From NCBI RefSeq assembly GCF_013167455.1, contig NZ_CP038330.1: a stretch of 64,000 nt of DNA; one strand, written 5' to 3'. This DNA comes from Escherichia coli O157:H7 (GTDB lineage Bacteria > Pseudomonadota > Gammaproteobacteria > Enterobacterales > Enterobacteriaceae). Position numbers and translations under genes: made by a program. Within the stretch, counting starts at the first letter, position 1. Every line of letters starts with the position of its first letter. Below are positions 12,760 to 40,674 of this stretch, in pieces. The notes below the pieces were generated by a model. That model was not told the origin of the DNA. It did no database searches and worked only from the letters and a program-made list of their open reading frames with translations.

Positions 12760-13551
12760 TTAGCCCACCTTCTCTAATAGTTCTTCCAACACCGCCTCAA
12801 CTTCTTTGGCCGCGACATGTCCATAGCGAAGCTCCCAGACAGGGATGCCATCAGTCGTCGCCGTATCGAGCGGAGGCCGGTGCATAATTTTGTTCTCAAA
12901 CAACAGATCCGGAACTGTGTTCTCCAGCGACTTGAGGGCTTTGTCGTGATTGACAGAGCGGTCCATGTCGTTGATCACGATGCCCAGGATCTCCAAATCT
13001 TGGTTGTACGCCTCGCGCACACCAATAATCGTGTTCAGGAGACCTTCTACGCCGTCCACAGCGAAGCCAGAGAGCTTTACTGGACATGCCACATGGGTAG
13101 ACATCACCAACGCTGCCACCAGCTTTCTGCCGAGGCTAGGCGGACAATCAATCAGCACGTAGTCGTAGTTCTCAAACAGCTCAGCCAAATGGCGAGCCGG
13201 ATTCATGGCCTGGTCAAGAGGCACAGCCTCCATCTCAAACAGATCCGGGTCGTTTTTCGGCGTATGAATGAGGTCTGCACCGCAAGGGCAGTGCATGACC
13301 TCAATGCCGTCCAGCTCGTAAGCGAACAGCTCTGCGGTTTTGGTTCCTGTGAGGATGGGCTCGTAGTCACCATCCTCAAGCTCTCGTCTGGGGGCCAGTC
13401 GAGAGGACGTGTTCCCCTGACCATCCATATCCAAGACCAGCACTTTCTTTTTCTTCTGTAACGCCAGATAAAAGGCCTGCTGGATACAGAGGGTACTCTT
13501 ACCCACTCCGCCTTTCTGGTTGGCGAAGCTGATTACTTTTGCCATACCCAC
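12760..13551 (-). CDS. parA: ParA partition ATPase (type I, deviant Walker A)
   Basis: KVISFANQKGGVGKST deviant Walker A; ParA/MinD family length. Confidence 0.9.
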   Translation of the reverse strand: MGMAKVISFANQKGGVGKSTLCIQQAFYLALQKKKKVLVLDMDGQGNTSSRLAPRRELEDGDYEPILTGTKTAELFAYELDGIEVMHCPCGADLIHTPKNDPDLFEMEAVPLDQAMNPARHLAELFENYDYVLIDCPPSLGRKLVAALVMSTHVACPVKLSGFAVDGVEGLLNTIIGVREAYNQDLEILGIVINDMDRSVNHDKALKSLENTVPDLLFENKIMHRPPLDTATTDGIPVWELRYGHVAAKEVEAVLEELLEKVG

Positions 13552-13593
13552 CTCTATTTTGGTTTCTCGCAGGTGATCAAGACCACCCCCAAA

Positions 13594-13638
13594 CTTTCAC
13601 ATGTGAAAGATTGTAGCGATCATAAAATGATACTGCAA
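13594..13638 (-). promoter_or_regulatory. parA promoter with overlapping palindromic operator (copy 2)
   Basis: Minus-strand -35 TTGCAG (13633-13638), 17-bp spacer, -10 TACAAT (13610-13615), then palindrome CTTTCACATGTGAAAG (13594-13609) at the predicted start site. Confidence 0.6.
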
Positions 13639-13718
13639 TATCTAATTATGGTTCTGTTAAAACAAACTTTAAACAAAAAAACGGCCATGAAGGCCGCTTA
13701 TTGACAAGGTTTGTGCTG

Positions 13719-14030
13719 TCAGCGCAATTGATTTGCTGCTCCAAGCCCATTCGCCAATAACTGCATCGCATCGTTGAACAGCGCGGAGCCCCGTTCCGGT
13801 GTGAGCAATTCCGGCATATCTTCTCGCGGCCAAGTACCGGCTACTTGAATGAGCAAACTGGCAGCCCAGTGGATCTGCTTTTCTTCACTTTCATCGGCCA
13901 GAGTGCATACGACGGGGAAACCGTACTTACGCCCCCAGCGACTCACCTCTTTGAACGATACCAGCTCAGGCTTTTGCAAATCCCGGCTGTAGGCCTCAGC
14001 TATCATGTGGTTCAGTTCTTTAGCGTCCAT
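13719..14030 (-). CDS. hypothetical protein; last backbone gene before the resistance island
   Basis: 103-aa ORF with hairpin downstream (~13687-13703). Confidence 0.45.
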   Translation of the reverse strand: MDAKELNHMIAEAYSRDLQKPELVSFKEVSRWGRKYGFPVVCTLADESEEKQIHWAASLLIQVAGTWPREDMPELLTPERGSALFNDAMQLLANGLGAANQLR

Positions 14031-14336
14031 TTATCCCACTCTATTGTAAACAAGACATTTTTATCTTTTATATTCAATGGCTTATTTTCCTGCTAATTGG
14101 TAATACCATGAAAAATACCATGCTCAGAAAAGGCTTAACAATATTTTGAAAAATTGCCTACTGAGCGCTGCCGCACAGCTCCATAGGCCGCTTTCCTGGC
14201 TTTGCTTCCAGATGTATGCTATTCTGCTCCTGCAGCTAATGGATCACCGCAAACAGGTTACTCGCCTGGGGATTCCCTTTCGACCCGAGCATCCGTATGA
14301 GACTCATGCTCGATTATTATTATTATAGAAGCCCCC

Positions 14337-15152
14337 ATGAATAAATCGCTCATCATTTTCGGCATCGTCAACATAACCTCGGACAGTTTCTCCGATGGAG
14401 GCCGGTATCTGGCGCCAGACGCAGCCATTGCGCAGGCGCGTAAGCTGATGGCCGAGGGGGCAGATGTGATCGACCTCGGTCCGGCATCCAGCAATCCCGA
14501 CGCCGCGCCTGTTTCGTCCGACACAGAAATCGCGCGTATCGCGCCGGTGCTGGACGCGCTCAAGGCAGATGGCATTCCCGTCTCGCTCGACAGTTATCAA
14601 CCCGCGACGCAAGCCTATGCCTTGTCGCGTGGTGTGGCCTATCTCAATGATATTCGCGGTTTTCCAGACGCTGCGTTCTATCCGCAATTGGCGAAATCAT
14701 CTGCCAAACTCGTCGTTATGCATTCGGTGCAAGACGGGCAGGCAGATCGGCGCGAGGCACCCGCTGGCGACATCATGGATCACATTGCGGCGTTCTTTGA
14801 CGCGCGCATCGCGGCGCTGACGGGTGCCGGTATCAAACGCAACCGCCTTGTCCTTGATCCCGGCATGGGGTTTTTTCTGGGGGCTGCTCCCGAAACCTCG
14901 CTCTCGGTGCTGGCGCGGTTCGATGAATTGCGGCTGCGCTTCGATTTGCCGGTGCTTCTGTCTGTTTCGCGCAAATCCTTTCTGCGCGCGCTCACAGGCC
15001 GTGGTCCGGGGGATGTCGGGGCCGCGACACTCGCTGCAGAGCTTGCCGCCGCCGCAGGTGGAGCTGACTTCATCCGCACACACGAGCCGCGCCCCTTGCG
15101 CGACGGGCTGGCGGTATTGGCGGCGCTGAAAGAAACCGCAAGAATTCGTTAA
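14337..15152 (+). CDS. sul2: sulfonamide-resistant dihydropteroate synthase Sul2
   Basis: 271 aa, MNKSLIIFGIVNITSDSFSDGGRY..., recognised as Sul2. Confidence 0.97.
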   Translation: MNKSLIIFGIVNITSDSFSDGGRYLAPDAAIAQARKLMAEGADVIDLGPASSNPDAAPVSSDTEIARIAPVLDALKADGIPVSLDSYQPATQAYALSRGVAYLNDIRGFPDAAFYPQLAKSSAKLVVMHSVQDGQADRREAPAGDIMDHIAAFFDARIAALTGAGIKRNRLVLDPGMGFFLGAAPETSLSVLARFDELRLRFDLPVLLSVSRKSFLRALTGRGPGDVGAATLAAELAAAAGGADFIRTHEPRPLRDGLAVLAALKETARIR

Positions 15153-19660: not shown

Positions 19661-19959
19661 GCGGTCTTCACTGCGTGATCGAGTTGATCGACACCCGCCG
19701 TGACACGCTCCATGAAGTGCCTGCCTGCGTCTGTTAGCCGAACGCCCCGCGCATGGCGCTCAAATAGCAGGACACCAAGGTTATCCTCCAGCGCTTTCAC
19801 ACGCGCGCTGACGCTCGACTGGCTGATACCAAGTGCCTTGGCCGCATGCCGAAAATTCAGATGCTCGGCGACGGCGATGAACTGAACAAGGGAAATGAGC
19901 GGTATCCTGCCAGACAGGATACCGACATTCACGAGGTTTCGATGGTTAGTGCGCCGCAT
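19654..19959 (-). pseudogene. truncated LysR-family regulator (N-terminal HTH fragment)
   Basis: 101-aa fragment with LysR HTH (FIAVAEHLNFRHAAKALGISQSSVSARVKALE); cut by the ISCR2 fragment; typical floR-associated lysR remnant. Confidence 0.7.
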
Positions 19960-25574: not shown

Positions 25575-26394
25575 GGCACTGTTGCAAAGTTAGCGATGAG
25601 GCAGCCTTTTGTCTTATTCAAAGGCCTTACATTTCAAAAACTCTGCTTACCAGGCGCATTTCGCCCAGGGGATCACCATAATAAAATGCTGAGGCCTGGC
25701 CTTTGCGTAGTGCACGCATCACCTCAATACCTTTGATGGTGGCGTAAGCCGTCTTCATGGATTTAAATCCCAGCGTGGCGCCGATTATCCGTTTCAGTTT
25801 GCCATGATCGCATTCAATCACGTTGTTCCGGTACTTAATCTGTCGGTGTTCAACGTCAGACGGGCACCGGCCTTCGCGTTTGAGCAGAGCAAGCGCGCGA
25901 CCATAGGCGGGCGCTTTATCCGTGTTGATGAATCGCGGGATCTGCCACTTCTTCACGTTGTTGAGGATTTTACCCAGAAACCGGTATGCAGCTTTGCTGT
26001 TACGACGGGAGGAGAGATAAAAATCGACAGTGCGGCCCCGGCTGTCGACGGCCCGGTACAGATACGCCCAGCGGCCATTGACCTTCACGTAGGTTTCATC
26101 CATGTGCCACGGGCAAAGATCGGAAGGGTTACGCCAGTACCAGCGCAGCCGTTTTTCCATTTCAGGCGCATAACGCTGAACCCAGCGGTAAATCGTGGAG
26201 TGATCGACATTCACTCCGCGTTCAGCCAGCATCTCCTGCAGCTCACGGTAACTGATGCCGTATTTGCAGTACCAGCGTACGGCCCACAGAATGATGTCAC
26301 GCTGAAAATGCCGGCCTTTGAATGGGTTCATGTGCAGCTCCATCAGCAAAAGGGGATGATAAGTTTATCACCACCGACTATTTGCAACAGTGCC
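25575..26394 (-). mobile_element. IS26, complete 820-bp copy
   Basis: 14-bp terminal IRs GGCACTGTTGCAAA at 25575-25588 and (reverse complement) 26381-26394; intact tnp26. Confidence 0.95.
25627..26331 (-). CDS. tnp26: IS26 transposase Tnp26 (wild-type Gly184)
   Basis: 234 aa MNPFKGRHFQRDIILWAVRWY...; contains RIIGATLGF. Confidence 0.95.
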   Translation of the reverse strand: MNPFKGRHFQRDIILWAVRWYCKYGISYRELQEMLAERGVNVDHSTIYRWVQRYAPEMEKRLRWYWRNPSDLCPWHMDETYVKVNGRWAYLYRAVDSRGRTVDFYLSSRRNSKAAYRFLGKILNNVKKWQIPRFINTDKAPAYGRALALLKREGRCPSDVEHRQIKYRNNVIECDHGKLKRIIGATLGFKSMKTAYATIKGIEVMRALRKGQASAFYYGDPLGEMRLVSRVFEM

Positions 26395-27098
26395 TACATT
26401 TCAAAAACTCTGCTTACCAGGCGCATTTCGCCCAGGGGATCACCATAATAAAATGCTGAGGCCTGGCCTTTGCGTAGTGCACGCATCACCTCAATACCTT
26501 TGATGGTGGCGTAAGCCGTCTTCATGGATTTAAATCCCAGCGTGGCGTTGATTATCCGTTTCAGTTTGCCATGATCGCATTCAATCACGTTGTTCCGGTA
26601 CTTAATCTGTCGGTGTTCAACGTCAGACGGGCACCGGCCTTCGCGTTTGAGCAGAGCAAGCGCGCGACCATAGGCGGGCGCTTTATCCGTGTTGATGAAT
26701 CGTGGGATCTGCCACTTCTTCACGTTGTTGAGGATTTTACCCAGAAACCGGTATGCAGCTTTGCTGTTACGACGGGAGGAGAGATAAAAATCGACAGTGC
26801 GGCCCCGGCTGTCGACGGCCCGGTACAGATACGCCCAGCGGCCATTGACCTTCACGTAGGTTTCATCCATGTGCCACGGGCAAAGATCGGAAGGGTTACG
26901 CCAGTACCAGCGCAGCCGTTTTTCCATTTCAGGCGCATAACGCTGAACCCAGCGGTAAATCGTGGAGTGATCGACATTCACTCCGCGTTCAGCCAGCATC
27001 TCCTGCAGCTCACGGTAACTGATGCCGTATTTGCAGTACCAGCGTACGGCCCACAGAATGATGTCACGCTGAAAATGCCGGCCTTTGAATGGGTTCAT
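26394..27098 (-). CDS. tnp26: IS26 transposase, G184N variant
   Basis: Same as Tnp26 except RIINATLGF (GGC->AAC); stop codon recreated as TAG at the junction. Confidence 0.9.
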   Translation of the reverse strand: MNPFKGRHFQRDIILWAVRWYCKYGISYRELQEMLAERGVNVDHSTIYRWVQRYAPEMEKRLRWYWRNPSDLCPWHMDETYVKVNGRWAYLYRAVDSRGRTVDFYLSSRRNSKAAYRFLGKILNNVKKWQIPRFINTDKAPAYGRALALLKREGRCPSDVEHRQIKYRNNVIECDHGKLKRIINATLGFKSMKTAYATIKGIEVMRALRKGQASAFYYGDPLGEMRLVSRVFEM

Positions 27099-27161
27099 GT
27101 GCAGCTCCATCAGCAAAAGGGGATGATAAGTTTATCACCACCGACTATTTGCAACAGTGCC
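26395..27161 (-). mobile_element. IS26 truncated tandem copy 2 (767 bp; lacks the 53-bp tnp-distal end including one IR)
   Basis: Begins at the tnp stop codon directly abutting the IRL of copy 1; ends with TTTGCAACAGTGCC. Confidence 0.85.
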
Positions 27162-27865
27162 TACATTTCAAAAACTCTGCTTACCAGGCGCATTTCGCCC
27201 AGGGGATCACCATAATAAAATGCTGAGGCCTGGCCTTTGCGTAGTGCACGCATCACCTCAATACCTTTGATGGTGGCGTAAGCCGTCTTCATGGATTTAA
27301 ATCCCAGCGTGGCGTTGATTATCCGTTTCAGTTTGCCATGATCGCATTCAATCACGTTGTTCCGGTACTTAATCTGTCGGTGTTCAACGTCAGACGGGCA
27401 CCGGCCTTCGCGTTTGAGCAGAGCAAGCGCGCGACCATAGGCGGGCGCTTTATCCGTGTTGATGAATCGTGGGATCTGCCACTTCTTCACGTTGTTGAGG
27501 ATTTTACCCAGAAACCGGTATGCAGCTTTGCTGTTACGACGGGAGGAGAGATAAAAATCGACAGTGCGGCCCCGGCTGTCGACGGCCCGGTACAGATACG
27601 CCCAGCGGCCATTGACCTTCACGTAGGTTTCATCCATGTGCCACGGGCAAAGATCGGAAGGGTTACGCCAGTACCAGCGCAGCCGTTTTTCCATTTCAGG
27701 CGCATAACGCTGAACCCAGCGGTAAATCGTGGAGTGATCGACATTCACTCCGCGTTCAGCCAGCATCTCCTGCAGCTCACGGTAACTGATGCCGTATTTG
27801 CAGTACCAGCGTACGGCCCACAGAATGATGTCACGCTGAAAATGCCGGCCTTTGAATGGGTTCAT
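27161..27865 (-). CDS. tnp26: IS26 transposase, G184N variant
   Basis: Identical to the copy-2 transposase. Confidence 0.9.
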   Translation of the reverse strand: MNPFKGRHFQRDIILWAVRWYCKYGISYRELQEMLAERGVNVDHSTIYRWVQRYAPEMEKRLRWYWRNPSDLCPWHMDETYVKVNGRWAYLYRAVDSRGRTVDFYLSSRRNSKAAYRFLGKILNNVKKWQIPRFINTDKAPAYGRALALLKREGRCPSDVEHRQIKYRNNVIECDHGKLKRIINATLGFKSMKTAYATIKGIEVMRALRKGQASAFYYGDPLGEMRLVSRVFEM

Positions 27866-27928
27866 GTGCAGCTCCATCAGCAAAAGGGGATGATAAGTTT
27901 ATCACCACCGACTATTTGCAACAGTGCC
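27162..27928 (-). mobile_element. IS26 truncated tandem copy 3 (767 bp)
   Basis: Identical unit to copy 2; terminal IR TTTGCAACAGTGCC ends at 27928. Confidence 0.85.
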
Positions 27929-28074: not shown

Positions 28075-29064
28075 TCAGTCTGACAGTGATGAGTCGCAGG
28101 CGTTCGGATCGGCATCGGTTTCGCTCCCGGTCTTGGCGCGCGCCTGGAAGCGCTGATAGCACTCCAGCCCGCAGAAGTGCTCGACGTATTCCGCGCCTTC
28201 CGGGGTGAAGGCGGCATCGAGCGGGATTTCCTTGCAGCACACGCAGCAACTGGTGGCAGTCGGATCATTTGCATTCATGGTGGCACCCCTCCATTGACTG
28301 ACGAAGACGGCGAATGCCGCCGCCGGCATCGGCTTGGCGAACAGGAAGCCTTGTCCTGTGTCGCAGTCCGCTTGTCGCAACAAATCAAGACTCGCCGATG
28401 TTTCCACGCCTTCGGCCACTACTTCCATGCCAAGCCCATGCGCAAGCTGAATCACGGTGCGCACGATGGTCTGGTCGCGGTGGTCGTTGGCGAGTCCGGC
28501 GACAAACGATTGGTCGATCTTGAGCGTGCTGATGGGGCAGCATTTCAGGTGTTGCAGGCAGGAATAGCCGGTGCCGAAGTCGTCGGCGGCGAAGCGCACA
28601 CCGATCTGTCGCAAAGCTTCCAGGGCGGGGAAGATCGCCGGATCACCGAACGCAACCGATTCGGTCAGCTCAATTTCAAGATACGCGGCGGGCAACCCGG
28701 CATCGGCCAGCACGCCCTTTACCCACTTGTCGAAATCTGGCCCCACTTGGCTCGCCGAAACATTGACGGCCAGCCGGAACGGTTGCCATGCCAGCACCCG
28801 CCAGTCGCGCATTTGACGGCAGGCTGCGCCCAGCACCCATGCGCCGATTTCCGGCATCAGGCCGGACGATTCGATCACGGGCAGGAACTGGCCCGGCGGC
28901 AACAGTCCGAGCGTCGGATGACGCCAGCGCAACAGGGCTTCCGCGCCGACAATCTGCTCACTGCGCAAATCGACAATCGGCTGGTAGTGCAGCTCAAGCT
29001 GCCCGCGCTCGACCGCCTGCGCCAGTTGCGCCACTGTCCATTCAATTGGCTGGGAAGCGCTCAT
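28075..29064 (-). CDS. urf2: EAL-domain protein Urf2 of mer modules
   Basis: Start [16 protein letters not shown] overlapping the merE stop (ATGA); EAL signatures (EALLRW, ELTES); ORF track over-extends to 29550. Confidence 0.8.
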
Positions 29065-29297
29065 GATCGACCTCTGAAGGCCCGCAGCAGCCGCGTCACA
29101 GACAGGACAAACAAGCCGGTCAGCGTGAGGGCTGCAATACCCCAGTGCTCGCCGATGAACGCGCCGGCCGTCGTGCCGGCCAGCACAATGGCGAGAATCG
29201 GCAAATGACAGGGACAGGTGAGCACCGCCAGCGCACCCCACAGGTAGCCGGTGAACGGCTTGTGTGTCTCGGCCGGCATGCGCTCGGGGCTGTTCAT
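29061..29297 (-). CDS. merE: MerE mercury transporter
   Basis: 78 aa, two TM helices with CPCH motif. Confidence 0.9.
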
Positions 29298-29659
29298 GGC
29301 AAACTCTCCGCATGCTGTGCCGGCGCGGTCGGCATGGCGGCCAACTGCACTTCCAGATTGGCCAACGCTTCGCGCCGGCGTTCGACGAACTGACGCAGCA
29401 CAGCAAGCTGCGCGGCAGTTTCATCGCAGTTCGCCGCATCCAGCGCCCGGCACAGCCGCGCCAATGCGCCGAGGCCGATGCCCGCCTCGAAGGCGGCCCG
29501 CACGAAGCACAGTCGCTGCAAGGCGGCGTCATCGAACAGGCCGTAGCCACCCGTGGTGCAGGCGACTGGCCGCAGCAATCCGCGCAGCAGGTAGTCGCGC
29601 ACGATATGCACGCTCACCCCGGCATCAAGGGCCAGCCGGGACACCGTGTAGGCGTTCAT
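29294..29659 (-). CDS. merD: MerD co-regulator
   Basis: Start [23 protein letters not shown] with GGAGGTG RBS; MerR-like HTH. Confidence 0.9.
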
Positions 29660-29770
29660 CGAACACCTCCTTTTGGTCGGTTCACGGCAATGCATATACC
29701 GTTTCGCCGAGTTCAATCCGCGCGCTGCGAATCCGATGCCGGTGCCGTAGAACATTGGGTCGATATCCGA

Positions 29771-30409
29771 TCACGGTGTCCTAGATGACATGGTCTGCAA
29801 CAGATGTCGATTAAACTCCTGGCCCAAGCCGAAAGCCTCGTGGACACTGACGATCGCCAATCCTTCCAATCCTTGATGCTTGGAGGCCCAGTCTTCCGCC
29901 GTCGGGACAGATGCAAAGAAATGTACATGGCAACAGAAGGACTGACGAACGTCGGCTGCTTCCTGCGGCAATACCAAGGACACCGCCATGCCGGCAGGTT
30001 CGACAGCCTGTATCTCGCTGGGTGAAACCGTGAGTGAAACGGGTGCTCCGGTTGCAGCGCAATGCGATGAGACGCGAGCTGTACGGCCGATCAGCGCCGG
30101 AAATATCAAGGTGTCCAGCGCGCACCAGGCATACAGACGGCGGTCGTCAATTTCAAAGACATACGAAGTCTCGCGCAAGGTGAGGCCGTAGCCGATGATG
30201 TTCCCATCTTTGTCATATTCGGTACTGGTGGCCTGTTCGAGTACGGCGGCCACTCGCTCAGCGGGCCAGTCGAGAATCCCGGCAAGTGTCGTTCGTGAAA
30301 CCGGACGCCCCTTGGCGAGTTCCCGCAGTAGCGGGACCAAGAGATCCGCAGTACCATTGGTACGATTGACCGAAGTGAGACGTTCTAAAATATATGGGGC
30401 GAGCTTCAT
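29771..30409 (-). CDS. merB: organomercurial lyase MerB
   Basis: Start [19 protein letters not shown]; conserved Cys/Asp region; position between merA and merD. Confidence 0.9.
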
Positions 30410-30423
30410 GGTTCCATCTCCTT

Positions 30424-32172
<1,749 letters not shown>

Positions 32173-32180
32173 TCAGTGCC

Positions 32181-32456
32181 TCACTTCTTGACGCTGGACG
32201 GATAGCCCGCGTCTTCGGTGGCCTTGGTCAGCTTCTGCACGCTGGTCTTGGCATCATCGAAGGTGACAACCGCTTCGCGTGTCTCGAAGGTCACGTTAAC
32301 TTTGCTGACGCCTTCGACCTTGGAAATCGCCTTCTTAACGGTGATCGGACAAGCGGAGCAGGTCATGCCCGGTACGGACAGCGTGACGGTCTGGGTGGCG
32401 GCCCACACGGGGGCAACAACGGCAGCGATGGCGAGAGAGGCAAACAGTTTTTTCAT
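32181..32456 (-). CDS. merP: periplasmic mercury-binding protein MerP
   Basis: 91 aa; signal peptide; GMTCSAC metal-binding motif. Confidence 0.95.
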   Translation of the reverse strand: MKKLFASLAIAAVVAPVWAATQTVTLSVPGMTCSACPITVKKAISKVEGVSKVNVTFETREAVVTFDDAKTSVQKLTKATEDAGYPSSVKK

Positions 32457-32471
32457 GATGAACTCCTGTGA

Positions 32472-32822
32472 TTAATAGAAAAATGGCATGACGTAGGGAA
32501 ATCCGAGCGCGACCAGAACCAGCGCGGCCACGACCCAGAAAATGAGCTTGTAAGTAGCGCGCACTTGGGGAATCGCACACACATCCCCTGGTTTGCAGGC
32601 TTGCGCCGGTCGGTAGATGCGCCGCCAGGCGAAAAACAGCGCCACCAACGCCGCGCCGATGAAGATCGGGCGATAAGGTTCCAACACCGTCAAGTTGCCG
32701 ATCCAAGCGCCGCTGAACCCCAGGGCGATCAGAACCAGCGGCCCCAGGCAGCAAGCCGAGGCGAGGATGGCGGCTAGCCCGCCAGTGAAGAGCGCCCCGC
32801 GCCCGTTTTGAGGTTCAGACAT
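32472..32822 (-). CDS. merT: mercuric transport protein MerT
   Basis: 116 aa; TM helices with CC pair (ASACCLGP). Confidence 0.95.
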
Positions 32823-32893: not shown

Positions 32894-33328
32894 ATGGAAA
32901 AAAATTTGGAGAATCTGACTATTGGCGTTTTCGCCAAGGCGGCCGGGGTCAACGTGGAAACAATCCGGTTCTATCAGCGCAAGGGCTTGTTGCCGGAGCC
33001 GGACAAGCCCTATGGCAGCATCCGCCGCTATGGCGAGGCGGATGTGACGCGGGTGCGCTTCGTGAAATCAGCCCAGCGGCTCGGATTCAGCCTCGACGAG
33101 ATCGCAGAGCTGCTGAGGCTGGATGACGGCACCCACTGCGAGGAAGCCAGCAGCCTGGCCGAGCACAAGCTTCAGGACGTGCGCGAAAAAATGACCGACC
33201 TGGCGCGCATGGAAACCGTGCTATCCGAACTTGTGTTCGCCTGCCATGCGCGGCAAGGGAACGTTTCTTGCCCGCTGATTGCTTCGCTGCAAGGGGAGAA
33301 AGAGCCGCGTGGTGCCGACGCGGTGTAG
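32894..33328 (+). CDS. merR: MerR transcriptional regulator
   Basis: 144 aa from [36 protein letters not shown] track over-extends upstream. Confidence 0.95.
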
Positions 33329-33344
33329 CCGAGGGTAGTTACGC

Positions 33345-33361
33345 CTTAGCGTGCTTTATTT
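33345..33361. repeat. inner part of the Tn21-family 38-bp terminal inverted repeat (mer end)
   Basis: CTTAGCGTGCTTTATTT immediately before the IS4321-like insertion; continues at 34689. Confidence 0.75.
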
Positions 33362-34688
33362 AATGAGATGGTCACTCCCTCCTTCCCGGTACTATGCTGA
33401 GGACAGGCTTTCATTCGGAGAACTATCATGGAAAACATTGCGCTCATTGGTATCGATCTGGGTAAAAACTCTTTCCATATTCATTGCCAGGATCGTCGCG
33501 GGAAGGCTGTTTACCGTAAAAAATTTACCCGGCCAAAGTTGATCGAATTTTTGGCGACATGCCCCGCTACAACCATCGCAATGGAAGCCTGTGGCGGTTC
33601 TCACTTTATGGCACGCAAGTTGGAAGAGTTGGGGCATTCCCCAAAGCTGATATCACCACAATTTGTCCGCCCGTTCGTTAAAAGCAATAAAAACGACTTT
33701 GTCGACGCCGAAGCTATTTGTGAAGCTGCATCGCGTCCGTCTATGCGTTTTGTGCAGCCCAGAACGGAATCTCAGCAGGCAATGCGGGCTCTGCATCGTG
33801 TCCGTGAATCCCTGGTTCAGGATAAGGTGAAAACAACCAATCAAATGCATGCTTTTCTGCTGGAATTTGGCATTAGCGTTCCCCGAGGAGCTGCCGTTAT
33901 TAGCCGACTGAGTACCATTCTTGAGGATAATAGTTTGCCTCTTTACCTCAGCCAGTTATTGCTGAAATTACAACAGCATTATCACTATCTTGTTGAGCAG
34001 ATTAAAGATCTGGAATCCCAGTTGAAACGAAAGTTGGACGAAGATGAGGTTGGACAGCGCTTGCTGAGCATTCCCTGCGTCGGAACACTGACAGCGAGTA
34101 CTATTTCAACTGAGATTGGCGACGGGAAGCAGTACGCCAGCAGCCGTGACTTTGCGGCGGCAACAGGGCTTGTACCTCGGCAGTACAGCACGGGAGGTAG
34201 GACGACATTGCTGGGAATTAGTAAGCGAGGTAATAAAAAGATCCGAACTTTGTTGGTTCAGTGTGCCAGGGTATTCATACAAAAACTGGAACACCAGTCT
34301 GGCAAATTGGCCGATTGGGTCAGGGATTTACTGTGCCGGAAAAGCAACTTTGTCGTCACTTGTGCTCTGGCAAACAAGCTGGCCAGAATAGCCTGGGCCC
34401 TAACGGCACGACAGCAAACTTATGTAGCATAACGGCAGAAATACACCGGTTTAAAGAATTACTGATCTGGTTTTGCGAATACTGATATTGATGATACTAA
34501 CGGCCCACCGGCCTGTTGAGGAACCTGTAAAACGGAAAGGCTCATTGAAGCCGTATATTTTCTGGAGGTTCATCAGGCGCGGAACTCATCAAGGCGCGGG
34601 AATAAAATCCCATTCAGACGCCGGATAGATTCAAGCAAGCCAACTTGTCGTCAAAATCGGTGTTGCAAAAACGGGAGTGACCATAGAT
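33362..34688 (+). mobile_element. IS4321/IS5075-like element (IS110 family), 1327 bp, inserted in the Tn21-family IR
   Basis: Length 1327 bp, IS110-family transposase, precisely splitting the 38-bp IR, the known target of IS4321/IS5075. Confidence 0.85.
33428..34432 (+). CDS. IS110-family transposase
   Basis: 334 aa; DEDD-type N-terminal domain (IGIDLGKNSFHIH) and C-terminal domain typical of IS110 family. Confidence 0.9.
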   Translation: MENIALIGIDLGKNSFHIHCQDRRGKAVYRKKFTRPKLIEFLATCPATTIAMEACGGSHFMARKLEELGHSPKLISPQFVRPFVKSNKNDFVDAEAICEAASRPSMRFVQPRTESQQAMRALHRVRESLVQDKVKTTNQMHAFLLEFGISVPRGAAVISRLSTILEDNSLPLYLSQLLLKLQQHYHYLVEQIKDLESQLKRKLDEDEVGQRLLSIPCVGTLTASTISTEIGDGKQYASSRDFAAATGLVPRQYSTGGRTTLLGISKRGNKKIRTLLVQCARVFIQKLEHQSGKLADWVRDLLCRKSNFVVTCALANKLARIAWALTARQQTYVA

Positions 34689-34709
34689 TCCGTTTTCTGA
34701 GACGACCCC
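34689..34709. repeat. outer part of the Tn21-family terminal inverted repeat; right boundary of the resistance island
   Basis: TCCGTTTTCTGAGACGACCCC, reverse complement of a GGGG..CTCAGAAAACGGA IR end. Confidence 0.7.
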
Positions 34710-34837
34710 TTGTAGGATTGGCTGTATCTGGGGACACTATAACCGTCAAAGAAGCCGGTTTGGTGTTGGTCATTGGGGTTATCCTGTGGATCTATGGTAT
34801 AATCTTAACCAAGGTCAGCAATTCCTAAGGGGGTCAA

Positions 34838-34954
34838 ATGGACGCTTTCACATTAGGCATGTTGGGGTTGCTCATTTTTTTCACTGTCGTCACTGGCGGC
34901 AGTCTGTATCTCTACCATGAGAAACAGAAGGAAAAAAAGCATCACAACGCCTAA
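34838..34954 (+). CDS. small hydrophobic peptide (38 aa), possible membrane toxin-like peptide
   Basis: Strong SD (AAGGGGG) 6 bp before ATG; MDAFTLGMLGLLIFFTVVTGGSLYLYHEKQKEKKHHNA = one TM helix plus basic tail; rho-independent terminator downstream. Confidence 0.4.
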   Translation: MDAFTLGMLGLLIFFTVVTGGSLYLYHEKQKEKKHHNA

Positions 34955-34981
34955 AGAGTAACTGCGACAATGAACGTAAAG

Positions 34982-35009
34982 GCCAGCAATAGCTGGCCTT
35001 TTTTTATAC
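34982..35009 (+). terminator. rho-independent terminator
   Basis: AAAGGCCAGCAATAGCTGGCCTTTTTTT. Confidence 0.7.
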
Positions 35010-35025
35010 TTGCAGTTTGAGGTGT

Positions 35026-35059
35026 TACATGTCACGATAAGGTAAGTGTGACATGTAAC
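35026..35059. promoter_or_regulatory. inverted repeat TTACATGTCAC-N12-GTGACATGTAA, probable operator
   Basis: 11-bp perfect arms overlapping the start of the RHH-like gene at 35048. Confidence 0.45.
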
Positions 35060-35449
35060 GGAAAAGGTGATTTTTTGAAAGTATCCAATGAAGATGCTCA
35101 GGCTACGGCGATCTATCTCCTCAGAGCTGCTTCGCGCCCAGCTTTCTGGCGTGACGTCCCATTCGATAAGAAACTTGAAGCCGTGGACAGCCTGAACAGC
35201 ATAGGGCGATCACCATCAGAACTCACTGAATGGATTAATAAATACCTGACAGCAGAGCAAATCAATAAACTCGGGACATCAATTAGGCAACGTCGCAGAA
35301 GGGGATATGGTGTTGGTAAAAGCATAACTATAAGCGATAAAGCCCACAGGATTTTGAAGCGGTTGTCAGAAGTCGATGGTTGCAGTTTGTCAGAAGTGAT
35401 CGAGAAACGCCTAGCCCGAGCTTATAAAAATACATGGGACCATAAATAG
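35048..35449 (+). CDS. ribbon-helix-helix-like DNA-binding protein (start uncertain)
   Basis: C-terminal KSITISDKAHRILKRLSEVDGCSLSEVIEKRL resembles CopG/Arc RHH; GTG start lies inside the palindrome. Confidence 0.45.
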   Translation: MTCNGKGDFLKVSNEDAQATAIYLLRAASRPAFWRDVPFDKKLEAVDSLNSIGRSPSELTEWINKYLTAEQINKLGTSIRQRRRRGYGVGKSITISDKAHRILKRLSEVDGCSLSEVIEKRLARAYKNTWDHK

Positions 35450-36420: not shown

Positions 36421-39400
36421 ATGAGATCGAGACCTTCCCTTTTACTGATGCGAAACCTGCGGTCATTGGCCGTTGTGGTGCTCGCAACTTTGCCATGCGT
36501 TGCTTTTGCACAATGGCGGGTTGTAGCCGTGAGCACCGAAGTAGACAAAATGCGCTTCAACACCATCATAGACGCGCATTCCTTCATGAAGAATTATCGC
36601 TCTGGTGAGGAGCAAGGGAAGGGAACGCCAGTTGGGGATGCGCTTTATCCGGTTGCCAGTTATGGTGATGGCCGTTATGTCTCCAGGATCTGTTTTAAGT
36701 ATCTAGGTGCTACTGGCGATTATGACCCCACTACCTGCACTGGCGACCCAGCTACGGTCTACTGGCGCTCAACCTATGTTCTGCCGGGTGAGATGGATAA
36801 AACACCGTTCCTGGACAGGGATCTCGGCTTACCAACAACGACCATGTGTGTAGGGAACCCTATCCATCTTGGCACCGGCAACAAGTTCCAGGCTGAACTG
36901 GATTATCAAAGCGGAGGCTCCGACCCTTTCACATTCACCAGATACTACAATAGCCACCTTCCTGATGAAGAGCTCGGCGGCTGGCGGCATACCTACTCGC
37001 GGAGCGTCGAGGTCAACGCCTCGAAGTACGGTGAGAACATGGTTGTCCTGCACCGGCCAGAAGGGCAACAACTCGCGTTCTACAACTCGTCCTCTGTCTG
37101 GGTGCCAACATGGAAAACCGATGATACCTTGACGAAGGATGCTACCGGCTGGCGCTACACTCAATCTGACGGGGTAGTCGAGGCCTATGATGAAACCGGA
37201 CGACTGACCGGCATCGAGAAGCCCAACGGCAATCACATCACCCTGAGCTATCTGAACGGAGAGCTATCCTCGATCACTGACGGCTTTGGCCGCACCATCC
37301 AGTTCCAGTATCAAGATGGCCGCATGGTCAGTGTCACCGATCCTGCTGGTGGCAGTATTCAGTACCAGTACAACAGCGCTGGCAAGCTGGCGGAAGTGAT
37401 CTACCAGGACAATACGAGCCGCAGCTATCTCTACGATGACCCGAATGCACCGGGTTTGCTCTCTGGGCTGGTGGACGAGAACGGCAACCGTTTCGCCACA
37501 TGGGGATATGATACTCAGGGGAGAGCGGTTCTAAGCGAACACGCCGGGGGCGCAGAGAAAACTCAGGTAAGCTACAACGCTGACGGAAGCGTCTCTGTCA
37601 CCAATGCCCTCGGCCACGTTCAGCGATACACCTACAGTCGCCACAATGGGATGCTCAAGCCTGATGTGGTTGAGGGTGCGCCGTGTACCGGCTTTGTGGG
37701 CGGCAAGGAAACCTACGTCTACGACAGCAAAGGCCTCGTCTCCAGCATTACTGACCGCGCTGGGCAGAAGCGCACGTTCACCCATAACGACCGGGGATTG
37801 GAAACCACCCAGATAGACCAGGACGGGGGTAAGGTTACGACCGACTGGCTTCCTTCCAAGTCGCTCCCGGCAAAAATCACAGAACCAACCAGGATCACTG
37901 AGCTCACCTACGACACTCATCTCCGGGTGATAAGCCGCAAGGTCACTGATCGCAGCTCGGGCGCTTCCCGGACATGGACCTACACCTATGCCCCTGTTGG
38001 TACAGGAAAGCCGAGCCTGTTGGCCTCGGTTGATGGTCCGCGCACCGACGTCAGCGATGTTACGACATTTGACTACGATGACCAGGGCAACCTGATCCGG
38101 ACAACGAACGCGCTGGGGCAGGTGACGCAGTTTGGTGACTACGACGCGAACGGTCGCGCCGGGACCATTCAGGGTGTCAATGGTGTAACCCAAACCCTCA
38201 CCTATGACGCCAGAGGAAGACTTGTCAGCTCCACTGGGCCAGAAGGAACCACGGTCTACAACTATGATGCTGTGGGCCTCCTGAGTTCGCTGACCAAGCC
38301 AAATGGTGCAACCGTCAGCTATGAGTACGACGCTGCACATCGGCTGGTGGCGGAAACAGATGCACAGGGCAACCGGCGCGAGCTTGAGCTCAATGACCTC
38401 GGGAACCCAGTAGAAGAGCGACTGCTCGATGCGCTGGGCCAGACCCGTTGGATAGAGCGCCGGATCTTCAACGAAATCGGCTGGCTCTCCAGTGTCTCCG
38501 ACGCCTATAGCAATCAGTCATCGTTTTCCTACGATGTGGTGGCAAACCTGATACAGGAGACCAGTCCCTCTGGTAACACACACTCCTACAAGTACGACGG
38601 CTTCCATCACCGGACACAAACGACCGATCCCCTCGGGAAGGTCACGCAGGTGCTCTACAAGGATACCGGCGATGTTTACCGTGTCTCCGACCCTCGTTCG
38701 CGCCTGACCTACTACAGCTACAACGGCTTTGGCGAAGTGACCCAGGTCCGGAGCCCGGACACCGGCACCACCGACATTACCTATGACGAAGCCGGTAACG
38801 TGGCAACGCGCAAAACGGCCAAGGGGCAAACCACAAGCTACAGCTATGACGCGCTGAACCGGATCATCGAAACCTCCAGCGATGTCGCTGGCGAATCGCC
38901 AATTCTGTACGGGTACGACGAAGCAACCTCACCATACGGCATAGGCCGCTTGACCTCAGTCGATGATGGCAACGGTGTCCGGAGATTTGGCTACACCCCC
39001 GAAGGATGGCTGGCTTACGAAACCTGGGAAACCCACGGGCAGAGCCTGACTACCCAGTACCAATACGATGGTGCAGGCCTCGTCACGAAGATCACGTATC
39101 CCAGTGGCCGTGAGGTCTCCTACACCCGTGACTCAGCCGGTGACGTCATCGAGGTGACAACGACACAAGCAGGCACCACAACAAACCTGGCAAGCCAGAT
39201 TGAGCGAGCGCCCTTTGGCCCCGTCACCAGTATGGTCAGAGGGAACGGCATTTCAGAAAGCCGCACTCTGGATCTCGATTACCGTGTCACCGGCATCGAC
39301 GCTGCTAGGGTGCATTCGCTGGTCTATCGGTACACGCCAGACTCGTTGATTTCAGCCATAGACGACAATCTCAGCTCATCAGTCAATCAGTCACTCGGTT

Positions 39401-40674
39401 ATGACGCGGTTGGCCGCATCACCTCTGCTGAGGGGATCTATGGCGTTTTGGGCTATGGCTATGACGCCACCGGCAACAGGACCTCGATCACGACCGATGG
39501 CCTGAGCCAAAGCTACACCATCAACTACATGAACAACTGGTTGGTGAAGGCCGGGCAAACCTCCAGAAGCTATGACGCCAATGGCAACCTGACGAAGCAG
39601 GGGGCGGATACCTTCACCTATGACAGCCAGAACCGGCTGGTGGCCGCAACGGTCGCGGGAGTGACTGTAAGCTACACATACAACCATCTGGATCAGCGTG
39701 TAACCAAGACCCTAAACGGGCATACCCGGCTGCTGGTTTACGACCTGGCAGGAAACCTCATCGAGGAGCTGGACGCGGCCACTGGAGACGTGCTGGCGGA
39801 GTACATCTGGCTCGATGGGACACCCTTGGGCTTTGTTCAGTCAGGACAGACCTACCAAGTCCACGTCGATCACCTGGGCACCCCGAAGGCACTGACCGAC
39901 GTCAGCGGCCAAGTCGTTTGGAAGGCGAGCTACAGCCCGTTCGGTAAGGCCAGCATCATCATCCAGGGGCCAACCTTCAACCTGCGATTCCCAGGACAGT
40001 ATTACGACGCGGAGACCGGGTTCCACTACAACTGGCGGCGTTACTACGACCCAGCGACCGGGCGGTACATTACCAGCGACCCTCTTGGCCTGATCGATGG
40101 AGTAAACACCTACGGGTATGTGCATGGAAACCCTATGTCCAATACCGACCCGACGGGTGAATTTGCGTTTGTTGGTGCAGGTATTGGAGCTGGGTTGGAG
40201 CTACTTAGCCAACTAATCGAAAATAATGGGAGTTGGAAATGTGTTAGTTGGTCAAAAGTTGGAATCGCCGGAGCGATTGGGGCTATAGGTGGCGGCTGGG
40301 CGTCAGGAGTTTTCAGACATGCCAGCTCCGGTAAATCGTGGTTCAAATTAAGCCAAAAATGGAGCAATGTCTCACCCAGAGTAAGGAAAGTTCAAGGGGT
40401 TCCACGAGGTAATGAGCTTCACCATTGGGCTATTCAGAGAAATGGCAAGTTTGGCAAATATGTTCCTGACTCAATAAAAAACCATCCTTGGAACTTGAAG
40501 TCCATTCCAAGAGATATTCACCAAAACATTCACGGCAATGGACCTACCCCATATAGCGCATTTGGTCGTTGGTGGCACGGGACGCCTGAATGGGCAAAAG
40601 TAGCTCAAGCCTCTCCTGTTAGTGGTGGTTTAGCTGATTCAATAAATGATGAGGGATGCGGTTGTGCAAATTGA
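36421..40674 (+). CDS. rhs: Rhs/YD-repeat polymorphic toxin with Sec signal peptide and C-terminal HNH-like (LHH-type) nuclease domain
   Basis: 1417 aa; signal peptide MRSRPSLLLMRNLRSLAVVVLATLPCVAFA; many YD repeats; Rhs core end DPLGLIDGVNTYGYVHGNPMSNTDPTGE; C-terminal ~170 aa with glycine-zipper segment and ELHHW...HPWN...HQNIHG. Confidence 0.9.
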   Translation: MRSRPSLLLMRNLRSLAVVVLATLPCVAFAQWRVVAVSTEVDKMRFNTIIDAHSFMKNYRSGEEQGKGTPVGDALYPVASYGDGRYVSRICFKYLGATGDYDPTTCTGDPATVYWRSTYVLPGEMDKTPFLDRDLGLPTTTMCVGNPIHLGTGNKFQAELDYQSGGSDPFTFTRYYNSHLPDEELGGWRHTYSRSVEVNASKYGENMVVLHRPEGQQLAFYNSSSVWVPTWKTDDTLTKDATGWRYTQSDGVVEAYDETGRLTGIEKPNGNHITLSYLNGELSSITDGFGRTIQFQYQDGRMVSVTDPAGGSIQYQYNSAGKLAEVIYQDNTSRSYLYDDPNAPGLLSGLVDENGNRFATWGYDTQGRAVLSEHAGGAEKTQVSYNADGSVSVTNALGHVQRYTYSRHNGMLKPDVVEGAPCTGFVGGKETYVYDSKGLVSSITDRAGQKRTFTHNDRGLETTQIDQDGGKVTTDWLPSKSLPAKITEPTRITELTYDTHLRVISRKVTDRSSGASRTWTYTYAPVGTGKPSLLASVDGPRTDVSDVTTFDYDDQGNLIRTTNALGQVTQFGDYDANGRAGTIQGVNGVTQTLTYDARGRLVSSTGPEGTTVYNYDAVGLLSSLTKPNGATVSYEYDAAHRLVAETDAQGNRRELELNDLGNPVEERLLDALGQTRWIERRIFNEIGWLSSVSDAYSNQSSFSYDVVANLIQETSPSGNTHSYKYDGFHHRTQTTDPLGKVTQVLYKDTGDVYRVSDPRSRLTYYSYNGFGEVTQVRSPDTGTTDITYDEAGNVATRKTAKGQTTSYSYDALNRIIETSSDVAGESPILYGYDEATSPYGIGRLTSVDDGNGVRRFGYTPEGWLAYETWETHGQSLTTQYQYDGAGLVTKITYPSGREVSYTRDSAGDVIEVTTTQAGTTTNLASQIERAPFGPVTSMVRGNGISESRTLDLDYRVTGIDAARVHSLVYRYTPDSLISAIDDNLSSSVNQSLGYDAVGRITSAEGIYGVLGYGYDATGNRTSITTDGLSQSYTINYMNNWLVKAGQTSRSYDANGNLTKQGADTFTYDSQNRLVAATVAGVTVSYTYNHLDQRVTKTLNGHTRLLVYDLAGNLIEELDAATGDVLAEYIWLDGTPLGFVQSGQTYQVHVDHLGTPKALTDVSGQVVWKASYSPFGKASIIIQGPTFNLRFPGQYYDAETGFHYNWRRYYDPATGRYITSDPLGLIDGVNTYGYVHGNPMSNTDPTGEFAFVGAGIGAGLELLSQLIENNGSWKCVSWSKVGIAGAIGAIGGGWASGVFRHASSGKSWFKLSQKWSNVSPRVRKVQGVPRGNELHHWAIQRNGKFGKYVPDSIKNHPWNLKSIPRDIHQNIHGNGPTPYSAFGRWWHGTPEWAKVAQASPVSGGLADSINDEGCGCAN

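Follow-up and report, generated by a model that had tools for sequence, protein, structure and literature searches.

What does an IS110-family element in the terminal inverted repeat (IR) of a Tn21-family transposon say about the transposon that once ended there, about the island that it bounds, and about the ability of that end to move again? These questions are raised by a locus in a stretch of 64,000 nucleotides from Escherichia coli O157:H7 (contig NZ_CP038330.1), referred to as the window. The account favoured here, held as a whole with a probability of about 0.93, is that the locus corresponds to a boundary of the resistance island ARI-A, where a transposon with a pDU1358-type mer module would have received a later insertion of IS4321, an element with a predicted guide RNA, and would thereby have lost the function of its end. 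The features on which this account is built are collected in Table 1.

Table 1. Features of the split inverted repeat and its surroundings, in window coordinates
Feature	Position	Strand	Basis or remark
IS26 array	25575..27928	-	One full copy and two 767-bp overlapping partial copies; truncates the inner edge of the transposon remnant
Broad-spectrum mer module, merT to urf2	28075..32822	-	pDU1358-type
urf2/EAL	28075-29064	-	
merE	29061-29297	-	
merD	29294-29659	-	
merB	29774-30409	-	
merA	30424-32109	-	
merP	32181-32456	-	
merT	32472-32822	-	
merR	32894..33328	+	Reads towards the IR; NCBIfam NF010315, 307 bits; annotation in matching records
Inner 17 bp of Tn21-family terminal IR	33345..33361	+	CTTAGCGTGCTTTATTT; mer-module side
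IS4321	33362..34688 (alternative 33361-34687)	+	100% identity to IS4321-annotated copies of many plasmids
Left subterminal inverted repeat	33368..33379	+	ATGGTCACTCCC; 12 nt, 100% complementary to 34673-34684
DEDD transposase gene of IS4321	33428..34432	+	334 aa; PF01548 and PF02371
Non-coding region (NCR) 3' of tnp	34433..34688	+	256 bp; predicted source of a seekRNA (guide RNA)
Candidate seekRNA guide	34529..34538	+	AAAACGGAAA; would pair with TTTCCGTTTT, the top-strand IR sequence that spans the insertion point
Candidate second guide	34556..34562	+	TATTTTC; same sequence as the top strand of the IR where it spans the insertion point, so that its pairing partner would be the bottom strand
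Right subterminal inverted repeat	34673..34684	+	GGGAGTGACCAT; partner of 33368-33379
Outer 21 bp of Tn21-family terminal IR	34689..34709	+	TCCGTTTTCTGAGACGACCCC
Right-hand copy of the ARI-A target-site duplication	34710..34714	+	TTGTA, 5 bp, in the IncC backbone
rhs gene of the IncC backbone	36421..40674	+	ORF; annotation in matching records

Identity and boundaries of the inserted element

An IS110-family element of 1327 bp, lying precisely between CTTAGCGTGCTTTATTT and TCCGTTTTCTGAGACGACCCC, had been described in the initial annotation, and the coordinates checked in the window, the length and the transposase domains all agree with that description. A placement shifted by one base fits equally well because a T stands at both element junctions, and it is this alternative that agrees with the rule of a 7-bp left and a 3-bp right extension at IS ends (PMC11187229). 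Depending on the placement, the extensions outside the subterminal inverted repeats measure 6 or 7 bp on the left and 4 or 3 bp on the right (AATGAG/AGAT). If the ends of the element were joined, the predicted circle junction would read ...GACCATAGAT directly followed by AATGAGATGG..., and a promoter-like TTGCAA-17-GATAAT is predicted across it. No second copy of IS4321 was found in the window.

The transposase matches the NCBIfam model NF033542 ('IS110 family RNA-guided transposase') with 341 bits (cutoff 140), shares 331 of 334 residues with the ISFinder transposase of IS4321, and contains the sequence GLVPRQYSTG, an instance of the motif GL-P----(S/T)G. A long NCR downstream of tnp is regarded in the literature as a hallmark of the IS1111 family. 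Matches to the element at 99% identity or more were counted in 2,668 plasmid records, and the two copies of plasmid R751, which occupy the same site in the same orientation, are 99.5% identical (6 substitutions and 1 indel) and 96.8% identical (42 substitutions) to the copy in the window. Judged by these identities, the element is IS4321, a member of the IS1111 group of the IS110 family, and not IS5075.

The rebuilt inverted repeat

The two flanks of the element each occur once in the window and in none of 100 dinucleotide-preserving shuffles. When abutted, they give CTTAGCGTGCTTTATTTTCCGTTTTCTGAGACGACCCC, exactly 38 bp. In an alignment with Tn21, proposed in the initial annotation as the comparison that would tell whether the halves reconstitute a Tn21-family repeat, they do so without a gap, matching the tnp-end IR of Tn21 in R100 (positions 19693-19730 of the compared sequence) at 38 of 38 positions. 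The mer-end IR of Tn21 (GGGGGCACCTCAGAAAACGG..., positions 59-96 of the compared R100 sequence) differs from the rebuilt repeat by 3 mismatches, which fall at outer positions; it terminates in GAGGTGCCCCC in R100, from which the window sequence is 3 mismatches away. The observation in the initial annotation that the outer half departs from the Tn21 mer-end sequence therefore holds, and the Tn21 sequence given there was itself correct. The assignment of GGGGTCGTCTC... to the mer-end IR of Tn21 was rejected, since the R100 sequence shows it to be the tnp-end IR. The 'variant' repeat is the sequence that Tn21 itself has at its tnp end, and it is not rare: merR and the IR of the window recur at 99% identity or more in at least 1,056 plasmid records.

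Alleles free of the insertion are also found. In pPC9 (12446-12483 of the compared sequence) and in many other plasmids, an uninterrupted 38-bp IR stands beside a merR that is 100% identical to the one in the window. In pVPS114, which shares merR and the backbone flank with the window, this very site is devoid of the IS, and the IR measures 37 bp, with one T missing exactly at the insertion point. As a weaker corollary, the shortened repeat may represent the scar of an imprecise excision rather than a sequencing error.

The flanks had been recognised at the outset as the known target of IS4321 and IS5075, the IR of Tn21-family transposons, and this is confirmed by the rebuilt 38 bp and by an insertion position and orientation identical to those known. 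The element was originally seen as IS4321L and IS4321R in plasmid R751, and its targeting of Tn21-family IRs was reportedly described by Partridge & Hall in 2003 (J Bacteriol 185:6371). Eight aligned copies of IS4321 or IS5075 (that of the window, both copies of R751 and five from other loci) have identical junctions, and of 5,000 plasmid hits taken as a spread sample, most give alignments that run from about the first base of the IR to its last (query 42-46 to query 1410-1411). A single position and a single orientation are used within the 38-bp IR, with no duplication of the target.

The halves of the repeat do not always travel together. Two compared loci have one outer half and flank in common, which IS5075 connects with the inner half beside a Tn21-type merR in one locus and beside cadR in the other; in a third, IS4321 connects a tnpA inner half with the outer half of the window followed by TTGTAGGA. 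Because recombination between IS4321 or IS5075 copies swaps IR halves, parentage is poorly indicated by the outer half taken alone; given also that the two IRs of Tn21 differ, it should not be used by itself to name the parent transposon.

The mer module and its parent transposon

Parentage is better read from the genes beside the inner half. There, merR is followed on the opposite strand by merT, merP, merA, merB, merD, merE and urf2; merB separates merA from merD, and merC is absent. ARI-A mer modules of this kind are labelled pDUmer in the literature, and Partridge & Hall 2004 reportedly support the same assignment. By gene content and this labelling, the parent module is assigned as merRTPABDE-urf2 of the pDU1358 type ('pDUmer'). 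Tn21 itself, with merRTPCADE and its own mer-end IR, is ruled out as the parent by mer genes that are only 80-84% identical, by the presence of merB, by the lack of merC and by the 3 IR mismatches. The earlier suggestion that the parent might be a less common member of the family was thus right in looking beyond Tn21, and wrong as to rarity, given the abundance of merR with this IR and the recurrence of the whole 12-kb arrangement in 201 records.

What is left in the window is a transposon remnant and not a complete transposon. A second, inverted IR was not found in the window at up to 3 mismatches; tblastn with the TnpA of Tn21 gave no match there, and with its TnpR only a 30% match to an unrelated resolvase.

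Position in the IncC backbone

Outward from the split repeat, TTGTA is present in the window as the right copy alone, the left copy reported in complete ARI-A islands being deleted here, and no backbone from the left of ARI-A was found in the window. Between the end of the IR at 34709 and the rhs ATG at 36421 there are 1711 bp. In the literature, ARI-A is flanked by TTGTA, has outer IRs interrupted by IS4321 or IS5075, lies 1711 bp upstream of rhs1 and is described as 'locked' in place. Matching records are typed IncC and show the order merRTPABDE-IS4321-rhs; the same 12-kb arrangement is present in at least 201 of them, including pSN254, to which the window is 99.94% identical over 10.3 kb. 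On the inner side, the IS26 junction recurs in pSN254 and at least 152 further plasmids, and on this ground an assembly artefact was rejected as the origin of the tandem partial IS26 copies. These matches identify the locus as the right-hand ARI-A boundary in a type 1 IncC plasmid that resembles pSN254 and belongs to the blaCMY-2 lineage.

That an IS4321-split end of a mer transposon lies at the right edge of ARI-A is already known and well documented in IncC multidrug-resistance plasmids. The split IR marks the right boundary of the island and helps to explain its fixed position in the backbone and its evolution in situ. The main gain from the present analysis is a correct annotation, and little lies beyond it, apart from predicted guides of IS4321 that could easily be tested by published seekRNA assays.

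Candidate seekRNA guides

Within the NCR, the segment AAAACGGAAA matches the target over 10 nt (shuffle p about 0.02), and nowhere else in the IS does a match reach 8 nt. The segment is unchanged in all eight of the compared copies and lies 97 nt past the tnp stop, the analogous match of ISKpn4 lying 98 nt past its own. The match of the second segment is only 7 nt long, and an alternative 7-nt register, TTTTCTG, is present. In the predicted fold of the NCR, both segments are arranged around a small hairpin (GGCUCAUUGAAGCC) inside a closing stem, and the MFE structure pairs a few bases of one with bases of the other. Thermodynamic stability gives the guide RNA no support, because the MFE of the NCR segment is no better than that of shuffles (z = -1.0). 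Between IS4321 and IS5075 copies, variability amounts to 3.5% in the NCR and to 9.4% in the remainder of the element. An Rfam scan of 33000-35200 matched no family of bridge RNAs or seekRNAs and returned only a sub-threshold Alpha_RBS match outside the IS.

As a control, the same exact-match search applied to ISKpn4 recovered the top-strand match and gave no bottom-strand match of 6 nt or more against the flanks of that copy. By eye, TTGAAC in the NCR of ISKpn4 may fit a canonical attC. There is an even chance that the NCR of IS4321 and IS5075 encodes a seekRNA and that the reading by its two putative guides is confined to TATTTTCCGTTTT at the centre of the IR. Such a restricted reading would explain how Tn21-family IRs with differing outer halves (GAGACGACCCC, GAGGCGACCCC) and differing inner halves are targeted.

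Proposed history and alternative readings

According to the proposed history, a transposon of the Tn21 subgroup of the Tn3 family, carrying a pDU1358-type mer module, would have entered the backbone at a site that lies 1711 bp upstream of rhs, with duplication of TTGTA. A later insertion would have placed IS4321 in the 38-bp mer-end IR, between the inner 17 and the outer 21 bases (or between 16 and 22), in its single typical orientation and with no target duplication. By analogy with studied relatives, its DEDD (RuvC-like) recombinase may use a seekRNA from the 256-bp NCR, in which the AAAACGGAAA and UAUUUUC segments would read the central TATTTTCCGTTTT on both strands. The tnp module and the second IR have been lost from the window through IS26 events.

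In Tn3-family IRs, the outer terminus is the end at which cleavage takes place and the inner part is that to which the transposase binds. Here the outer terminus lies 1.3 kb from the inner part, and the mer end should therefore no longer work; the split end should be inactive for transposition. A block to transposition by IS4321 or IS5075 within an IR is likewise the accepted inference in the literature. The mer transposon is immobile in the window for a second reason too, as it lacks tnpA, a Tn21-type tnpR and the second IR.

Three other readings were weighed against this account. The identification of the element as IS5075, or as a new relative resembling IS4321 and IS5075, draws on how common IS5075 is and on its having the same length, ends and target (between 1,973 and 1,991 plasmid records fall in the band of 90-95% identity to the window element); it is nevertheless extremely unlikely, given the complete identity to copies annotated IS4321, the 99.5% identity to one R751 copy and the near-identical transposase, against about 93.7% identity to IS5075-annotated copies over element and IR. 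It is also quite improbable that the parent was Tn21 or a hybrid whose outer IR half was imported by homologous recombination between IS4321 copies, the two halves having originally been separate. The swaps seen through IS5075 (merR and cadR inner halves sharing one outer half) and through IS4321 (a tnpA inner half) show that such exchanges occur, but the divergent mer genes, with merB and without merC, speak against Tn21, and the 38-bp repeat of the window is found uninterrupted beside an identical merR in pPC9 and many plasmids and, one T shorter, at the same site in pVPS114; uninterrupted modules of this mer type end in this very outer half.

IS4321 may, alternatively, have left the end functional, with the mer segment or the island still transposable. 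Precise excision of IS4321 with restoration of the IR is said to have been described by Partridge & Hall in 2003, and the IS-free allele of pVPS114 is compatible with excision. This reading is nonetheless very doubtful, since neither a Tn21-family tnpA nor, with 3 mismatches allowed, a second IR was found in the window, the backbone position is the same in at least 201 plasmids, and the literature treats the island as locked. The account of an ARI-A boundary formed by a pDU1358-type mer transposon and later split by IS4321 is therefore retained.

Comparison with known systems

The seekRNA mechanism has been demonstrated for the IS1111-family relatives ISEc11, ISKpn4 and ISPa11, a tested set to which IS4321 does not belong (Siddiquee et al. 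2024, PMC11187229). IS4321 shares with them the downstream NCR, a top-strand match located 5' of the bottom-strand match, the overlap of the two matches where the element inserts and a comparable distance from the tnp stop; the RNA was demonstrated in those elements, whereas the guides of IS4321 are predicted from its sequence alone. IS5075 and the IS4321 of the window agree in length, ends, target and orientation and have nearly identical NCRs; most of the differences between them fall in tnp and the first 35 bp of the NCR. The IS4321 of R751 agrees in its 1327 bp, its 12-bp subterminal IRs, the AATGAG/AGAT extensions, the insertion point and the orientation, with nothing of substance different.

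Tn21 of R100/NR1 belongs to the same 38-bp IR family as the parent transposon, its merR likewise reads towards the IR, and its merTPADE-urf2 genes are homologous. In contrast, it has merC and no merB, its mer genes are 80-84% identical, and its mer-end IR (GGGGGCACCTC...) differs at 3 outer positions, its tnp-end IR being identical. The closest counterparts of the locus as a whole are the ARI-A islands of the type 1 IncC (A/C2) plasmids pRMH760 and pSN254. In the window, ARI-A is reduced to the mer remnant, its left end, integron and Tn1696 tnp module being absent from the window, and three overlapping IS26 units join the remnant directly to ARI-B sequence, whereas pSN254 has two such units. 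The right end is shared with both islands: a pDU1358-type mer module, an IR split by IS4321, TTGTA and 1711 bp to rhs.

Identity and boundaries of the inserted element

The flanking strings CTTAGCGTGCTTTATTT (33345-33361) and TCCGTTTTCTGAGACGACCCC (34689-34709), each found once in the window and never in 100 dinucleotide-preserving shuffles, enclose 1327 bp (33362-34688), as the initial annotation had it. Because a T stands at both junctions, 33361-34687 is an equally valid placement of the IS, and it leaves terminal extensions of 7 bp on the left and 3 bp on the right, the lengths now taken as correct for the IS1111 family (PMC11187229). The transposase carries the DEDD_Tnp_IS110 and Transposase_20 domains and scores 341 bits (cutoff 140) against the NCBIfam model 'IS110 family RNA-guided transposase', while the downstream non-coding region (NCR) and the subterminal repeats together place the element in the IS1111 group.

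The element had been described as an 'IS4321/IS5075-like' member of the IS110 family; family and target stand, and the name can be narrowed. The transposase is identical at 331/334 positions to the ISFinder IS4321 protein (sequence from the PMC11187229 supplement). Among 72,556 plasmid records searched, the element has 100% identical counterparts annotated as IS4321, whereas those annotated as IS5075 share only about 93.7% identity; 2,668 records lie at 99% or above, and another 1,973 form a separate group at 90-95%. The defining features of IS4321 open to in silico testing are all present, and the element, which occurs once in the window, is IS4321 itself. R751 is the plasmid in which IS4321 was first described, and its two copies (99.5% and 96.8% identity to the window element) lie within IR-like sequences in the same position and orientation.

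The R751 copy at 13405-14730 is 1326 bp long; its left subterminal repeat region is one C shorter (GGTCACTCCTCC versus GGTCACTCCCTCC). Its target is a diverged IR-like sequence, ACGCTAAAGCTTTATTT / TCCGTTTTCTGAGGCGACCCC, and the IS therefore tolerates changes outside the central CTTTATTTTCCGTTTTCTGAG. In the window, a weak promoter-like TAGTTA-17-TTTAAT (8/12; 33336-33364) spans the junction of the IR and the left IS4321 end, upstream of tnp, and might allow the inserted copy to express transposase at a low level.

Features of the IS4321 insertion, the mer module and the adjoining IS26 array
Feature	Coordinates	Strand	Remarks
IS26 array	25575-27928		cuts the mer module on its inner side
urf2	28075-29064	-	EAL-domain gene
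merE	29061-29297	-	
merD	29294-29659	-	
merB	29774-30409	-	
merA	30424-32109	-	
merP	32181-32456	-	
merT	32472-32822	-	
merR	32894-33328	+	reads towards the IR
Left subterminal inverted repeat	33368-33379		ATGGTCACTCCC; perfect, 12 bp
IS4321 tnp ORF	33428-34432	+	334 aa; sole long ORF in the element
NCR			256 bp, downstream of tnp
Right subterminal inverted repeat	34673-34684		GGGAGTGACCAT; perfect, 12 bp

The reconstructed repeat and its parent transposon

Joined, the flanks give a 38-bp repeat, CTTAGCGTGCTTTATTTTCCGTTTTCTGAGACGACCCC. Both ends of Tn21 were read directly from plasmid R100. The tnp-end IR (19693-19730) is identical to the reconstructed IR, so that a Tn21-family repeat is indeed reconstituted, and the mer-end IR (59-96, GGGGGCACCTCAGAAAACGG...) differs from it at three outer positions. 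The Tn21 mer end as given in the initial annotation (...GAGGTGCCCCC) was thus right and the difference real. The suggestion of a less common family member is not borne out: the outer half is common, equals that of the Tn21 tnp-end IR and is native to this mer type, and a rare parent is therefore not indicated. The uninterrupted IR adjoins a 100% identical merR in pPC9 (12446-12483) and in many other plasmids, the merR and IR segment recurs at 99% identity or above in at least 1,056 records, and the reconstructed sequence also flanks IS4321 in R751 and at other loci.

An IS-free allele of the site, with merR, TTGTA and backbone all as in the window, is present in two Vibrio parahaemolyticus IncC plasmids, pVPS114 (NZ_KY014465, 9446-9482) and NZ_OQ622007. 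Its IR has 37 bp (TTTATTTCCG versus TTTATTTTCCG), with one T missing exactly at the IS4321 insertion point, which could be either the scar of an imprecise excision or a homopolymer sequencing error.

The suspicion that the parent was not Tn21 was correct, since the window module contains merB, lacks merC and shares only 80-84% identity with the mer module of Tn21; by gene content, identity and mer-end IR alike, the parent is not Tn21. The pPC9 module is closer (89-96% identity) but lacks merB. The IncC plasmid literature calls such a module 'pDUmer', of pDU1358 type, as against 'Tn21mer', and by its gene content and that naming the window module would be of the pDU1358 type.

In two K. pneumoniae plasmids one common outer half, GAGGCGACCCC, with a common pcoS-side flank, is reached via IS5075 from two distinct inner halves, a merR end of Tn21 type and a cadR end, an arrangement that implies IS-mediated recombination. 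In the IncC plasmid pKpn14-3, a Tn3-family tnpA end, not a mer end, leads via IS4321 to the window's outer half and TTGTAGGA, with the TTGTA flank, which implies that an inversion has occurred between the IS4321 pair of the resistance island ARI-A. Recombination between IS4321/IS5075 copies can thus swap outer halves, and for this reason an outer half alone is a weak marker of parentage. The first reading is corrected twice, in that the 'variant' half is the common one and says little of parentage; its observation is confirmed, and apart from the rarity of the parent it was essentially right.

Locus and remnant state

The closest plasmid matches are IncC plasmids, and the 12-kb query is covered to 80% or more in 201 records. 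ARI-A, first described in pRMH760, was published as lying 1711 bp upstream of rhs1 with a TTGTA duplication on either side, and as derived from Tn1696, with IS4321 or IS5075 interrupting both outer IRs and thereby leaving it 'locked' in place. ARI-A's right-hand end is found here as described: TTGTA directly follows the IR, and 1711 bp separate the IR end (34709) from the start of rhs (36421). The IS26-mer-IS4321-rhs stretch is shared with pSN254 at 99.94% identity over 10.3 kb. The locus is this well-known right end, already known and with nothing new in it.

What is left of the parent is a remnant of a Tn21-subgroup transposon, not a complete one. Neither a second IR (up to 3 mismatches allowed) nor a Tn21-family tnpA or a close tnpR was found in the window. 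In the Tn3 family, the transposase binds the inner portion of the IR and cleavage takes place at the outer tip. From this general knowledge, together with the 'locked' statement, we infer that the split IR blocks transposition; the mer segment would be immobile for that reason and, independently, through loss of the transposition module and the other end.

Across the IS26 array the mer module directly adjoins sequence of ARI-B type (ISCR2/ISVsa3, floR, tet(A) and others) and IncC backbone, which implies deletion of most of ARI-A and of the backbone separating it from ARI-B; the window also lacks the backbone that pVPS114 has to the left of ARI-A. Positions 1-25574 hold IncC backbone and the ARI-B-type island with ISVsa3/ISCR2, floR, tet(A), DNA topoisomerase 3 and a cytosine methyltransferase. 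The array opens with a full IS26 (820 bp, 3 mismatches). Behind it, in head-to-tail order, stand two identical partial units of 767 bp (IS26 positions 54-820); in each, tnp26 remains a complete ORF that borrows the following unit's first G to end in TAG, which makes three consecutive tnp26 copies in the window. An identical junction recurs in pSN254, where there are two units, in pAR060302 and in no fewer than 152 plasmid records, which rules out an artefact.

Target recognition by IS4321

IS4321 inserts at a single position and in a single orientation in the IR. Across a spread sample of the best 5,000 plasmid hits, most alignments run from roughly the first base of the IR to its final one. 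The junctions are identical in 8/8 aligned copies, although the outer half is GAGACGACCCC in some and GAGGCGACCCC in others and one copy has a differing inner half. Transposases of the IS1111 family bind a seekRNA of 70-100 nt from the downstream NCR, in which a segment complementary to the top strand precedes one complementary to the bottom strand, the two overlapping at the insertion point (literature including PMC11187229). By analogy with its relatives, IS4321 would find the IR through such an RNA. Two segments of the NCR, 34529-34538 and 34556-34562, are candidate guides, to which we give an even or slightly better chance (roughly 0.5-0.6).

The first, AAAACGGAAA, complements TTTCCGTTTT across the insertion point, and the entire IS has no other match of 8 nt or longer to the target; matches of at least 10 nt arose in 37/2,000 dinucleotide shuffles of the NCR, and the longest in windows of the coding part was 7 nt. 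The second, TATTTTC, equals the target top strand across the insertion point, a 7-nt match for which an alternative register exists. Both are invariant in the aligned IS4321 and IS5075 copies (n=8), between which the NCR varies by 3.5% and the remaining IS by 9.4%. In the predicted fold they flank a small hairpin (GGCUCAUUGAAGCC) inside a closing stem, the minimum free energy fold pairing a few bases of one with the other. The NCR is no more stably folded than shuffled sequence (z = -1.0) and matches no Rfam family.

A junction promoter has been reported for circular forms in the IS1111 family (PMC11187229), and joined IS4321 ends would form a promoter-like TTGCAA-17-GATAAT. ISKpn4 has an analogous match 98 nt past the tnp stop, where the top-strand match of IS4321 lies 97 nt past it.
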